Below, one piece after another: positions 60,581-64,000 of a stretch of 64,000 nucleotides of DNA; the first letter of the stretch is position 1, and the number at the start of each line of letters is the position of its first letter. The translations under genes and the position numbers were made by a program. Source of the stretch: Escherichia coli. GTDB taxonomy: Bacteria > Pseudomonadota > Gammaproteobacteria > Enterobacterales > Enterobacteriaceae. The notes beneath the pieces are model-generated. The model saw only the letters and a list, made by a program, of their open reading frames with translations. It was not told the DNA's origin and ran no database searches. Location: assembly GCF_041248615.1 (NCBI RefSeq), contig NZ_CP158426.1; one strand, written 5' to 3'.

Positions 60581-60658
60581 TGGCGAATTAATCAGCAGTC
60601 AGCAGCGTGGCACTTGCTAAGGAGAGCGTAAGGTTTATAATGCCTTACGCATCTCGAA

Positions 60659-60732
60659 GCGGGCGTAGTTCAATGGTAGAACGAGAGCTTCCCAAGCTCT
60701 ATACGAGGGTTCGATTCCCTTCGCCCGCTCCA
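60659..60732 (+). tRNA. glyU: tRNA-Gly (anticodon CCC)
   Basis: GCGGGCGTAGTTCAATGGTAGAACGAGAGCTTCCCAAGCTCTATACGAGGGTTCGATTCCCTTCGCCCGCTCCA; cloverleaf with anticodon loop CUUCCCAAG and encoded CCA. Confidence 0.95.
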
Positions 60733-60747
60733 GAATCTCCCCTGGTG

Positions 60748-60770
60748 GAGAAGACTAAAAAAGTCTTCTC
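60748..60770 (+). terminator. hairpin after glyU
   Basis: gagaagac-taaaaaa-gtcttctc perfect stem; no clear T tract. Confidence 0.5.
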
Positions 60771-61229
60771 TGTCAGCAACTTAAACAGTTACCTATTTAA
60801 TTTGCTTAGGAGTTCTACCATTGTGATCCGCCCTTAGTAACTGTCACGTTAAGTTACACGGTGAGATGACAGTATAACCTAACGTTGGCGGCAGTTGCAC
60901 CTCTCACACCGCGATAGCACAACGTGAAGATAAAGCCCATCCTGGCATTGTAATGTCATCGACAGACTGAACACACGCATTTAAGCCCGATGTGCGGCCT
61001 TGTGGCTGCGTAAACAGGTTTATGGTGATATTGGTCCTTGCAAACCATATGCAAGCTCTATCAGCGTTTCAGCCACGCTCCCAACGGGTACACGGTTATC
61101 CTGATAAGGTGTGATCTTTCTGACAATCTGATGAAGTCGCTACGCTCCCGCTTGTTGCTGTATCACCAACGGGGCTTTATGGTTTCTATTGTCTATAATA
61201 ATCTCACAATTCCCCTGCATGAGGTTGAT

Positions 61230-61436
61230 ATGACTGTTAGCTACAAGATTACTTATGAGCATAGAGACGGTGATCAAATTAGAATGGAAGAGGTTTTATT
61301 CCATTCAGAGCATGAACCAACAAAAGATGAAATTCATGATGCAGTAAGAAAAGATACTGTGAGATTTAATTCTCCATCTAATGGAGTAACGGCTGTTTCA
61401 GGGTTTAAAGTGATTTCGGTTGTCCCTGTTCCATGA
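61230..61436 (+). CDS. hypothetical small protein (68 aa)
   Basis: ATG preceded by gagg SD; the longer 132-aa version of ORF 61038..61436 has no convincing start context; convergent hairpin at the 3' end. Confidence 0.35.
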   Translation: MTVSYKITYEHRDGDQIRMEEVLFHSEHEPTKDEIHDAVRKDTVRFNSPSNGVTAVSGFKVISVVPVP

Positions 61437-61447
61437 ATGGTTATAGA

Positions 61448-61464
61448 AGGGGCTGGAAGCCCCT
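61448..61464. terminator. hairpin between the convergent small ORF and lipoprotein gene
   Basis: aggggct-gga-agcccct. Confidence 0.5.
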
Positions 61465-61469
61465 AATTA

Positions 61470-61790
61470 TTACTTCTTAATATCGCCAGTGCATTGATAT
61501 TCGATAGTCACAAGTGTTTGCATACAACCAGATGAAGAAGGTTGTGAACATTGAGAAGTGAATCCACCAAAAGGCTCGGCTCCTGAATATCCCCAAGCGG
61601 CACAACGCGCTTTGGCTGCATTCATGCCTTGTTGTGGATCTACAACAGGACTTTCAAACATACCGTAAGAATAACTCATCCTAACTGTGCCGTCTGATTT
61701 GCTTCCACCAGTTGGAACGAGTTGTTTTTTTGTTGCACATCCAGAAATAATCAATGTTGAAGCAAGTAACAGCATTAAACTTTTGCGCAT
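61470..61790 (-). CDS. cysteine-rich predicted lipoprotein (106 aa)
   Basis: signal peptide with lipobox LIISGC; four further Cys in the mature part; no family recognised. Confidence 0.6.
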   Translation of the reverse strand: MRKSLMLLLASTLIISGCATKKQLVPTGGSKSDGTVRMSYSYGMFESPVVDPQQGMNAAKARCAAWGYSGAEPFGGFTSQCSQPSSSGCMQTLVTIEYQCTGDIKK

Positions 61791-62442
61791 GTAAATAATC
61801 CCAAGAGATAATGGTTATGTATTGATTTAAAGCGTTTTTAGATTAATGCATTAACTTAGCAAAATTAAGTCTTTTCTGATTGTTTGCAGAGTAAAAATGA
61901 GTTGCTTTCGAAATTATTTCGGATGTTTATTGTATTACGGTTTTTCAAACCGTCTAACTATTGTCGCTATTGAATGGGCAATAATAGCAAGAGGATTCAT
62001 TTCGTCATTGGAGGCAACAAAAAGTCGGTAACTGATAGCTACAACGAATGAAGCAATAACGAGAAAGCGGATAGTGCTAAGATGTTTTGAAGATAAATGC
62101 ATAACGCCCCCTAAATGAATGTGAGGGGGATTAAATCATGCAAATTTGTTGTGTGCAATACTGGTAATTTATCCTAATAGTCTACTATTCACCTCAATCT
62201 ACGTCAACCAATATTTGATGTAGATTTGATTTTCTTTTAAAAACAATATTTTGCAATTTGTTGGGTTTTGGGGTTAGGTTGTTTTTTGGACGTTTCCATC
62301 AAGTGTAAAGATACGTTTAGCCTTCATAGTGAGTTCAGTTACTGTCTTTTTCTCTGAAATCGGCGCATACGTGATCATCGCTTAACGAGAAGAGCAGCGC
62401 CGTCAGGTCCATGCAGCGACAATTCTGAAATATCAGGAGGCA

Positions 62443-62994
62443 TTACGCTTCCTGCTCTTTCTTGATACGTTGCACCGTTTGTGTGCTGACACTGAAATCT
62501 TTTGCTACGCTCCGAATTGATCCACCATTCGCGAGAGCGGCAGCAATTCCCGCTCGATCAATTGCTTTTCCATTACCACGTTTTGCTATACGTCCAGCGG
62601 CCTTAGCTGCGGCGATCCCCTCACGCTGGCGCTCAAGCATCATTTCACGTTCCATTTGTGCCACTGCTGCAAGCACTGTGAGCATCATATTCCCTGCGGG
62701 AGAGTTCTTCCCTGTCTTAAAGTCTTCTTTATGGAAATGCACAGACACGCCGCGCTTTGTTAATTGCTCAACCGTTGCCAGTAGGTCGGCTGTATTACGG
62801 CAAAGTCGATCAATACTGTGAACATGCAAAACATCACCTTCCCGCACATAGTTCATCATTGCCTCAAACTGTGGGCGCTGGGTATTCTTGCCTGACGCTT
62901 TATCTTCAAAGACTTTATCAAGAGCTACTCCAGCTAATTGACGGTCTGTGTTTTGTTGCACAGTCGATACCCTAATGTATCCAATATTAGCCAT
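62443..62994 (-). CDS. serine recombinase, resolvase/invertase family (183 aa)
   Basis: N-terminal catalytic motif GYIRVSTVQQNTDRQ with the active-site Ser, FEDKASG, DRLCR, and a C-terminal HTH (GGSIRSVAKDFSVSTQTVQRI). Confidence 0.85.
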   Translation of the reverse strand: MANIGYIRVSTVQQNTDRQLAGVALDKVFEDKASGKNTQRPQFEAMMNYVREGDVLHVHSIDRLCRNTADLLATVEQLTKRGVSVHFHKEDFKTGKNSPAGNMMLTVLAAVAQMEREMMLERQREGIAAAKAAGRIAKRGNGKAIDRAGIAAALANGGSIRSVAKDFSVSTQTVQRIKKEQEA

Positions 62995-63019
62995 TTTCTT
63001 TATTCCTTCTGTGTTGATT

Positions 63020-63130
63020 TGTGTGTAGTGATTATTGATCGTGTTGATTAGGTGTGTAAAGGACTTTTTTCACTACGAAATTCGAAGGTTTTTAGTGTGG
63101 TGATTTAGCCTGCTTTATCACTACACGTCT
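63020..63130. promoter_or_regulatory. structured inverted-repeat region upstream of the recombinase gene (candidate res-like / autoregulatory site)
   Basis: 10-bp perfect inverted repeat gtgtagtgat (63023-63032) / atcactacac (63117-63126), internal cactac/gtagtg motifs, and a central cgaaattcg palindrome (63076-63084). Confidence 0.4.
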
Positions 63131-63516
63131 TGCATGAGAATCATGTAGTTACATTTTGGTAAAATTAGCAAGCTATTAAATAGTGTGTTTATTTTGAAAA
63201 AATAATTTTTTGTTGCATTAAAGGAAACTTGTTCAATAAATGATAGAACGTTTATTGAGCAACAATTTTGCAGTGATGCGCTATATGCCGCATTACATAA
63301 GGCTTTGCTGATGATAATGTAAAAGTGAAGAAAGCTAACATTGCTCTTTTAAGCTACTTTTCATTGAATTTTTAGTATGGAATTACATAGGGATAAACTA
63401 TGAATATTCTATGATTTACACGAGATATTCTTGCTGTTTAATTCCGGCTTTGGAGATCAGGCATTCGCAAGAATACGCTAACGCGTTGCCTGAAAAGCCA
63501 TTGCACATAATAGAGG

Positions 63517-63835
63517 TGAGCGTATAGCGAACTATCAATGTGATCATTGCACGAATGATAATGAGTGGATATAGATTCTATATATCGTTAGATTGTAGTT
63601 TGATAGTTAATGTGTAATGTAGATTGTATGAGCGTATAGCGAATGTTAGTTAGATCAACAACAAACTAACCTTTAAATCTCTTTTATCTTCTCATAGATA
63701 TGGCTATGCGTAGCAACCGAAGGTTAGCCAATCATCTCTATGCAGCCGTAAGGCTGTTTTGCATGTAATAGTTGTTTGTTGTTGTTAGACAGTTACCAAT
63801 TTATAGATCAGAGATAGATGTGAGCGTTGAGCGAT
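63517..63835 (+). repeat. iteron-like direct repeats (3 copies)
   Basis: tgagcgtatagcgaa at 63517-63531 and 63629-63643 (exact), degenerate tgagcgttgagcgat at 63821-63835. Confidence 0.6.
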
Positions 63836-63924
63836 ACACTAATCATAACAACATCTTCTTACTTTTTAGTTAGTTGTTAGTAGGTTATTGTTATGCGCGC
63901 TATTAGCGCATGTATAAAGGTATC

Positions 63925-63999
63925 ATTTTTATCTAAAGGGCTTTAGACATTTTTGATACCTTTTTCATCTCTAAAAAAGTGTAATTTTTATCTAAAGGG
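63925..63999 (+). repeat. short tandem direct repeats atttttatctaaaggg
   Basis: exact 16-mer at 63925-63940 and 63984-63999, with a degenerate copy tttttcatctctaaaaaa between them. Confidence 0.6.
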
Positions 64000-64000
64000 G

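Follow-up and report, generated by a model that had tools for sequence, protein, structure and literature searches.

What does a small lipoprotein gene contribute to a genomic island of Escherichia coli, and to which protein family does its product belong? Both questions are raised by a 321-bp open reading frame (ORF) at 61470..61790, on the minus strand, of a 64,000-nucleotide (nt) stretch of contig NZ_CP158426.1 (assembly GCF_041248615.1), hereafter the window. A sequence-only reading of the window had described the product as a cysteine-rich lipoprotein of unknown family. We find that it is a YecR-family lipoprotein, encoded by an accessory, horizontally acquired paralogue carried alongside the core flagellar yecR that lies elsewhere in the chromosome. 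The ORF begins with ATG and comprises 106 codons. It is a real gene and not a chance ORF, because its product matches the Pfam YecR family, has orthologues across genera, and belongs to a family with 799 representatives (50% identity clusters, E <= 1e-3). The identical protein is deposited in RefSeq as WP_001232281.1, where the Prokaryotic Genome Annotation Pipeline (PGAP) names it “YecR family lipoprotein.”

A Pfam search matched PF13992 (YecR) and no other family (E = 2.2e-23, 82.8 bits), with query residues 28-100, encoded at 61491-61709 of the minus strand, aligning to positions 1-73 of the 73-position model. Searching the Protein Data Bank (PDB) with phmmer identified YecR in 7BGL, a structure of the flagellar LP ring of Salmonella that holds 26 YecR copies (E = 9e-10), and all four non-lipid cysteines align between the two proteins. 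An AlphaFold2 model of the island lipoprotein, built from a 45-sequence alignment, had a mean predicted local distance difference test score of 90.2; the modelled fold is essentially that of YecR in 7BGL, and fold searches of the PDB returned YecR alone. Across the same 45 sequences C63, C81, C89, and C100 are invariant, and they align with the cysteines of Salmonella and E. coli YecR. Orthologues 75-91% identical were found in Cronobacter, Pantoea, Lonsdalea, Serratia, and Enterobacter. By hidden Markov model (HMM) match, lipoprotein signal, cysteines, and fold, the island protein is a member of PF13992. The Pfam, PDB sequence, and fold searches thus rule out a novel family. The sequence-only reading had named a strong match to a well-characterized housekeeping lipoprotein family as the result that would count against it; the full-length PF13992 match and the PGAP name are of that kind and refute the unknown-family claim, and the structure prediction it had suggested as a check gave the YecR fold. 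For the window, then, the result is mainly a correction, from a presumed new family to a protein already named in RefSeq, and the assignment itself is ordinary: this is an accessory, island-borne member of an annotated family. Two NCBIfam lipoprotein models also matched, below their cut-offs and only over residues 1-20 and 1-34, which cover the signal peptide and lipobox; these models were rejected as unrelated and uninformative.

Other parts of the earlier description held up well. The precursor opens MRKSLMLLLASTLIISGCATKK, and its N-terminus, MRKSLMLLLASTLIISGC, has a basic n-region (R2, K3) followed by a hydrophobic core and a putative lipobox, I15-S16-G17-C18, encoded at 61737-61748. The Sec/LspA lipoprotein signal proposed previously is supported by alignment, as the cysteine corresponding to C18 is kept in 200 of 203 family members. 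The mature domain of about 88 residues was likewise correctly described as containing four cysteines: C63, C81, C89, and C100 all fall within the 88 residues past C18, and 194 of the 203 members have all five. The mature domain has a beta-beta-alpha-beta-beta arrangement. Its +2 residue is Ala, not Asp; the family as a whole has Ala at this position in 160 of 203 members and Asp in none of 203. Under the established Lol +2 rule of E. coli, an Ala here points to sorting to the outer membrane.

We then compared the island gene with the core flagellar gene. The island protein (106 aa) and YecR (b1904; 107 aa) share the full-length HMM match, the lipoprotein signal, and the four aligned non-lipid cysteines, but they differ in sequence, site, and distribution. 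Identity is 29% to K-12 YecR and 28-29% across the Salmonella and E. coli proteins. Core yecR lies at ftnB-yecJ-yecR-ftnA and is found in 5,419 of 5,426 complete E. coli genomes (99.9%), whereas the island ORF lies at glyU and is found in 124 of 5,426 (2.3%), being at least 99% identical in 123 of those 124. Its carriers span diverse pathotypes and animal hosts. By locus, by identity, and by the presence of a separate core copy, the island gene is neither an orthologue of core yecR nor syntenic with it. The strain distribution that had been suggested as a check thus bears out an accessory gene, and it has kinship to a housekeeping family, yet at only 29% identity to the core member.

Alignment of family representatives placed the island protein closer to the bulk of the family than to the flagellar protein. 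It is 40-57% identical to many of the retrieved representatives, while none of the retrieved representatives or homologues exceeds 35% identity to core YecR. The lipid cysteine and the four other cysteines are essentially invariant in these alignments, and two further motifs are nearly so: G29-S30-x-x-D33-G34 (GGSxxDG) and W66-G67-Y68. The island protein keeps both, whereas flagellar YecR of E. coli and Salmonella has lost the first apart from its final Gly and the second apart from its Trp. Because these motifs are lost in flagellar YecR and kept in the island protein, the structurally characterized flagellar YecR is the diverged branch, and the island protein has the family-typical form.

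The gene sits on a horizontally acquired island, as the sequence-only reading had recognized. Although 5,410 of 5,426 complete E. coli genomes match window positions 60600-64000, the great majority share only the first 133 nt, and homology stops at 60732, the 3′ end of tRNA-Gly. GC content falls from ~0.53 in the xdh/ygeR core genes to 0.33-0.41 past tRNA-Gly. A complete element of 13.5 kb is present in the O26:H11 strain FWSEC0001, where 17-nt direct repeats of the tRNA 3′ end occur at both flanks, the distal one adjoining a tyrosine integrase. Besides this distal integrase, the 13.5-kb island encodes a replication-initiator-like protein, a lambda gpE-type major capsid protein, and a tape-measure-like protein. 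A capsid gene is present with no recognizable portal or terminase among the genes scanned against PHROGs, so the island is satellite-like or defective. An IMG/VR viral contig (L023) encodes an identical protein across residues 12-106. Strain NRZ14408 matches the window at 100%; there, ~1.5 kb past the window end and ~4.8 kb from tRNA-Gly, IS1 truncates the island. The recombinase module also occurs, at ~92% DNA identity, without the lipoprotein gene in related islands at thrW and in some of those at glyU; the gene therefore fills a variable cargo slot between the attachment (att) site and the recombinase.

Carriage on mobile elements is a recurrent property of the clade to which the island protein belongs. 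In Cronobacter, Enterobacter, Klebsiella, Citrobacter, Pantoea, Lonsdalea, and Serratia, close homologues (64-91% identity) occupy an edge position in small integrative islands that also encode Phage_cap_E capsid proteins, integrases, resolvases, and a DUF5906 primase-like protein. In IMG/VR, 114 viral contigs encode YecR-like relatives, which were retrieved by one peptide pattern, and 80 loci were kept. The YecR-like gene stands beside lambda-like tail genes (tape measure H and tip proteins) in 42 of the 80 viral loci. Most of these tail-gene loci have it in the slot H-M-L-K-[YecR-like]-I-J (e.g., L064, 6001-6327; L025-L102), and PHROG matches confirmed the genes on either side as those for the tape measure, minor tail and tail assembly proteins, and central tail fiber J. 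In Klebsiella pneumoniae prophages (L106/L107, 7001-7324) the gene instead lies between the tail chaperone G/T and the tape measure, and elsewhere in phages it immediately follows a Q-like antiterminator, beside Ant, or lies close to an integrase. As the YecR-like protein carries an export and lipidation signal, it is not part of the virion, and its phage positions are moron positions.

Plasmids are a further vehicle. Circular plasmids of ~2.1 kb from Salmonella, Shigella flexneri, and K. pneumoniae carry a 56%-identical copy as their sole convincing ORF (e.g., NZ_CP100751.1, locus L020, 2,109 bp, with the gene at 447-770). This plasmid protein, WP_016245705.1, was found in 1,697 indexed blocks of the contig collection, mostly on contigs of <5 kb; no Rfam replicon RNA, including the RNAI type, was matched on the 2.1-kb plasmid. 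Clade members are also borne by plasmids of Xanthomonas, and environmental and plant-associated carriers include Herbaspirillum. Intact members were found in K. pneumoniae chromosomes as well. K. pneumoniae and Synechococcus are generally taken to lack flagella, and with copies in K. pneumoniae and in phages recorded for Synechococcus, the clade is not confined to flagellated hosts. Taken together, the clade is recurrent mobile-element cargo, and the family-typical YecR form is widespread as a single-gene cargo. The sole YecR with a known location is an accessory of the flagellar L ring, while the family-typical form is spread by prophages, satellite-like islands, and tiny plasmids.

Some individual relatives deserve mention in their own right. 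Bbp28 of Bordetella phage BPP-1, a diversity-generating-retroelement phage, is a YecR-family lipoprotein with 37% identity (L021, 5001-5357); its gene stands alone on the opposite strand, between terminase/endonuclease genes and a primase gene. A 53%-identical copy precedes the tape measure in two phages whose recorded host is Synechococcus (L022, 5001-5306, Ssp-JY37), a surprising setting given that this host is a cyanobacterium. In the lambda-like tail-tip operon, a phrog_914 gene often follows the YecR-like gene.

What is established for the family comes from the flagellar protein. Johnson et al. described YecR as a single-domain lipoprotein forming an extra layer on each FlgH outside the L ring, with the Salmonella protein packing on the outside of the FlgH barrel at membrane level, and suggested that it remodels lipids round the unusually thin hydrophobic band of the L ring (bioRxiv 10.1101/2020.12.05.413195). 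L rings still form in a yecR mutant, and the protein has been proposed to help protect the outer membrane (PMC11756786). In E. coli, yecR is a direct FlhDC target, its expression, at 653 units, dropping to 1-2 units when flhD or flhC is mutated (PMC4183435), and its disruption is generally deleterious under antibiotics and raises multi-drug susceptibility (PMC2680486).

From established pathways, the island protein would be exported by Sec, matured by Lgt, LspA, and Lnt, and sorted by Lol to the outer membrane's inner leaflet, where its four remaining cysteines would form two periplasmic disulfides. By analogy with YecR, the domain might then dock, laterally or from the periplasm, on an outer-membrane beta-barrel assembly, and the gain for the mobile element would lie at the envelope, most likely as exclusion of the Llp, Cor, and Rtp45 type directed at incoming phage or DNA. 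We put this forward tentatively: an outer-membrane lipoprotein that docks on a barrel and excludes incoming phage or DNA is the role we favor for the island protein, held at distinctly less than even confidence, and the docking target is the least certain step of the mechanism. Since the clade travels as single-gene cargo and reaches hosts without flagella, something other than the L ring, or in addition to it, is probably the target. An exclusion- or immunity-type role, such as the sequence-only reading had raised for small island lipoproteins, gains circumstantial support from the paralogue status of the gene and from its carriage by phages, islands, and plasmids.

The likeness to known exclusion proteins is one of general type. 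Llp (phage T5, acting on FhuA), Cor (phi80, N15, and T1, FhuA), and Rtp45 (Rtp, LptDE) are also small lipoproteins with disulfides at the outer membrane's inner leaflet, and phages encode them. They are often encoded beside tail or receptor-binding genes, and relatives of the island protein occupy the lambda-like tail-tip operon. Cor acts on the outer-membrane barrel FhuA by docking at its periplasmic interface. Llp and Rtp45 sit on the periplasmic interface of FhuA and LptDE, respectively, and block phage adsorption (PMC12685063); for the island protein, docking of this kind is proposed by analogy only.

Several results weigh against this reading. The island lipoprotein had no PADLOC or PHROG match, and PHROG and PDB fold searches linked it to Llp, Cor, or Rtp45 neither in sequence nor in fold. 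The island copy has no receptor-binding or tail gene nearby. In 17 lambda-like prophage loci, identity of the YecR-like protein correlated with that of tail protein K (r = 0.91) as well as with that of the J C-terminus (r = 0.85), and between groups whose J C-termini are ~29% identical the YecR-like proteins are 81% identical. Because K is tracked as closely as the J C-terminus, the protein does not look tuned to the receptor of its own phage; co-variation with the receptor-binding end of J was accordingly rejected, the 17 loci giving no signal beyond shared ancestry, and the comparison made simple masking of that receptor less credible to us. The flagellar L ring is where the one relative with an experimentally determined position is found, and a literature search found no function reported for “YecR-like,” “YecR family,” or Bbp28 proteins. 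Upstream of the gene, two sigma-70-like promoter matches were found, but such matches are no more numerous than in shuffled sequence, and these are candidates only.

A wider version of the idea is that the mainstream YecR clade consists of unrecognized mobile-element envelope-defense lipoproteins that clamp barrels, with flagellar YecR a domesticated, diverged offshoot sealing the L ring. We regard this as rather unlikely, though such a class would explain both the sole-cargo status on 2-kb plasmids and the regular presence in prophage tail operons. Were mobile copies to exclude phage or DNA at barrels, they would add a new fold to the exclusion lipoproteins Llp, Cor, and Rtp45, and would hint at the origin of a flagellar belt protein. 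As the 321-bp gene is apparently a single-gene module, the question is cheap to test.

Two other roles for an intact, functional protein need to be set against exclusion. The island protein could be a working flagellar paralogue that attaches to FlgH and adds to the core YecR belt, takes its place, or competes with it, thereby altering the outer-membrane seal at the flagellum or the sensitivity to flagellotropic phages. Its family and modelled fold are those of the L-ring protein, E. coli is flagellated and has FlgH, and core YecR is an FlhDC class 2 product decorating each FlgH, in a belt that must matter for the barrier since yecR disruption raises multi-drug susceptibility (PMC2680486). Against this, only 29% identity links the two proteins, and GGSxxDG and W66-G-Y, which the island protein keeps, are lost in the core protein. 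Nor is a flagellar promoter apparent: with up to 3 mismatches allowed, consensus scans detected no sigma-28 consensus upstream of the gene, and the one FlhDC-like half site, at 62047-62061, belongs to a window-wide set of 18 found versus 13 expected, which is chance level, although such scans may miss regulation. The clade also has intact members in K. pneumoniae and in Synechococcus-recorded phages, hosts generally known to be without flagella, and is the sole cargo of 2.1-kb plasmids. We therefore judge an L-ring role unlikely, and less likely than an exclusion role. The gene might alternatively serve host fitness or virulence apart from excluding phage or DNA, through serum resistance, stress resistance, or the outer-membrane barrier, much as phages and plasmids carry Bor/Iss (lambda) and TraT (F-like plasmids), which are also single-gene outer-membrane lipoprotein cargo at moron positions. 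Near-invariance of the island copy across diverse pathotypes and animal hosts is consistent with this, as is the lack of specific co-variation between the YecR-like protein and the phage receptor-binding domain. Bor/Iss and TraT are, however, unrelated families (Pfam gives PF13992 only), the literature search found no reported phenotype, and a mammal-specific role sits poorly with the presence of the clade in Herbaspirillum, on the Xanthomonas plasmids, and elsewhere among environmental and plant-associated bacteria and their phages. On balance we find a fitness role of this sort doubtful, while giving it some weight.

The other two explanations concern the setting of the gene and are much weaker. 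A Hin/Gin-like serine invertase might flip a promoter segment of the lipoprotein gene, as hin does for fljB. The neighboring recombinase is indeed a PHROG “DNA invertase,” upstream on the same strand, and a 17-nt inverted repeat (62019-62035/62335-62351, 88% complementary) brackets 299 nt between the two genes. However, no hix-like inverted repeats were found at the flanks of the recombinase gene, and the complete copies examined were all collinear, none inverted (92 genomes covering at least 80% of 61400-63400), the partial matches examined being IS1 or IS2 insertions or different cargo. The YecR-like gene of Pantoea is divergent from its resolvase, and a tyrosine recombinase is the neighbor in other genera. 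With neither flanking hix-like repeats nor inverted alleles among the E. coli copies listed, we disfavor a Hin-type switch and consider it extremely improbable. Somewhat less remote, though still very unlikely, is that the gene is a decaying passenger without current function on an IS1-truncated island remnant. Several strains, the one matching the window among them, have an island truncated by IS1 or IS2, and no strong promoter or Shine-Dalgarno sequence is evident. Yet ~120 genomes have an intact ORF at 99.7-100% identity, including those in which the remainder of the island is deleted; all family-invariant residues are kept, and protein-level conservation extends to the orthologues of other genera.

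The positions of the gene and of the features around it are collected in Table 1.

Table 1. Features of the island end and lipoprotein gene in the window
Feature	Position	Strand	Basis or remark
tRNA-Gly(CCC), island integration site	60659..60732	plus	ARAGORN, Rfam
att core TCCCTTCGCCCGCTCCA, last 17 nt of tRNA-Gly	60716-60732		repeated at distal end of intact copies
tRNA-proximal end of low-GC phage-related integrative island	60733..64000		runs past window end
Convergent small ORF	61179..61436	plus	PGAP 85 aa, WP_024017360.1; 68 aa from ATG 61230
GC-rich hairpin AGGGGCTGGAAGCCCCT	61448..61464		between convergent genes; terminator scan and sequence
YecR-family lipoprotein precursor, coding sequence	61470..61790	minus	ORF list, PF13992, PGAP, phmmer to 7BGL
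Mature lipoprotein, residues 18-106	61473..61739	minus	predicted lipidated Cys18 and four-cysteine domain
Signal peptide, residues 1-17, MRKSLMLLLASTLIISG	61740..61790	minus	pattern in sequence and alignment
Two weak sigma-70-like promoter matches	61929..62008	minus	TAGACG-16-TACAAT 61956-61929; ATGACG-16-TATTAT 62008-61981
55-aa ORF with hydrophobic segment	61935..62102	minus	between recombinase and lipoprotein gene
Serine recombinase, resolvase/invertase type, 183 aa	62443..62994	minus	PHROG 125; PGAP “recombinase family protein”

The immediate surroundings of the gene agree with the sequence-only reading on two points: a plus-strand ORF of 68 aa, or 85 aa in the PGAP annotation, converges on it, and it lies ~650 nt downstream of the serine recombinase on the same strand. 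The recombinase match to PHROG 125 “DNA invertase” is strong (E = 8e-62). The convergent 85-aa ORF had no Pfam, PHROG, or PADLOC match and is absent beside YecR-like genes in other genera. The hairpin between the two convergent genes is likely a bidirectional terminator. For the 55-aa ORF, PHROG and PADLOC gave no family match; in related thrW islands the corresponding DNA is ~92% identical and has an annotated 52-aa hypothetical protein.

Comparison with related islands also revealed recurrent break points. Homology ends at 61964 in thrW islands, at ~62337-62342, and at 62428; the second falls within the right arm of the 17-nt inverted repeat (62335-62351), and the third is just past the recombinase stop codon. 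These recurrent breaks suggest modular exchange of the cargo end of the island. A GGTAACTG/CAGTTACC motif recurs at 60786, 60834, 62022, 62335, and 63788.

Just within the island, 60812-60833 forms an inverted partial copy of the 5′ half of tRNA-Gly (60661-60682), with 82% complementarity over 22 nt, an exact 12-mer (CAATGGTAGAAC), and a spacing of 129 nt. The same arrangement was seen in the other glyU islands examined (L001, L003, and L018). At the far end, from 63000 to 64000 and onward (L001, 13700-16000), ~2.3 kb downstream of the recombinase start has a GC content of 0.33, and the part within the window contains no ORF longer than 43 aa. It includes a 23-nt palindrome at 63916-63963 and repeated CCTTTAGATAAAAAT motifs at 63930-64000, and the matching unannotated stretch of an intact island has tandem 23-mers and other short repeats. 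This low-GC repeat stretch may be an origin or regulatory region of the island; an Rfam scan of the island end found the tRNA only, and nothing in the repeat stretch. A 613-aa protein of the intact island (L001, 21649-23490) matches PHROG tape-measure families (E = 8e-65), and its counterpart in the sister island L015 is named “flotillin family protein” by PGAP.

Rearrangements at glyU were observed in several strains. In the strain identical to the window (L003, 24922-26166), the island remnant is fused through IS1 to a winged-helix regulator gene, itself truncated, beside yqeH. The E. coli type III secretion system 2 (ETT2) region lies beyond glyU in E. coli, and from this IS1 junction near yqeH it follows that most of the island and most of ETT2 are missing in that strain. 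The glyU site is also a hot spot for tandem integration. In the O26:H11 genome (L019, 2301 and 11386; NZ_CP031922.1, ~926300 and ~935385), a second island follows the first and ends at a third 17-nt att core; it encodes a separate integrase, a Rha regulator, and a DUF4145 protein and contains an IS66 element. In strain PT62 (L017, 1275-5044), another integrase-bearing element lies between the tRNA and the YecR module.

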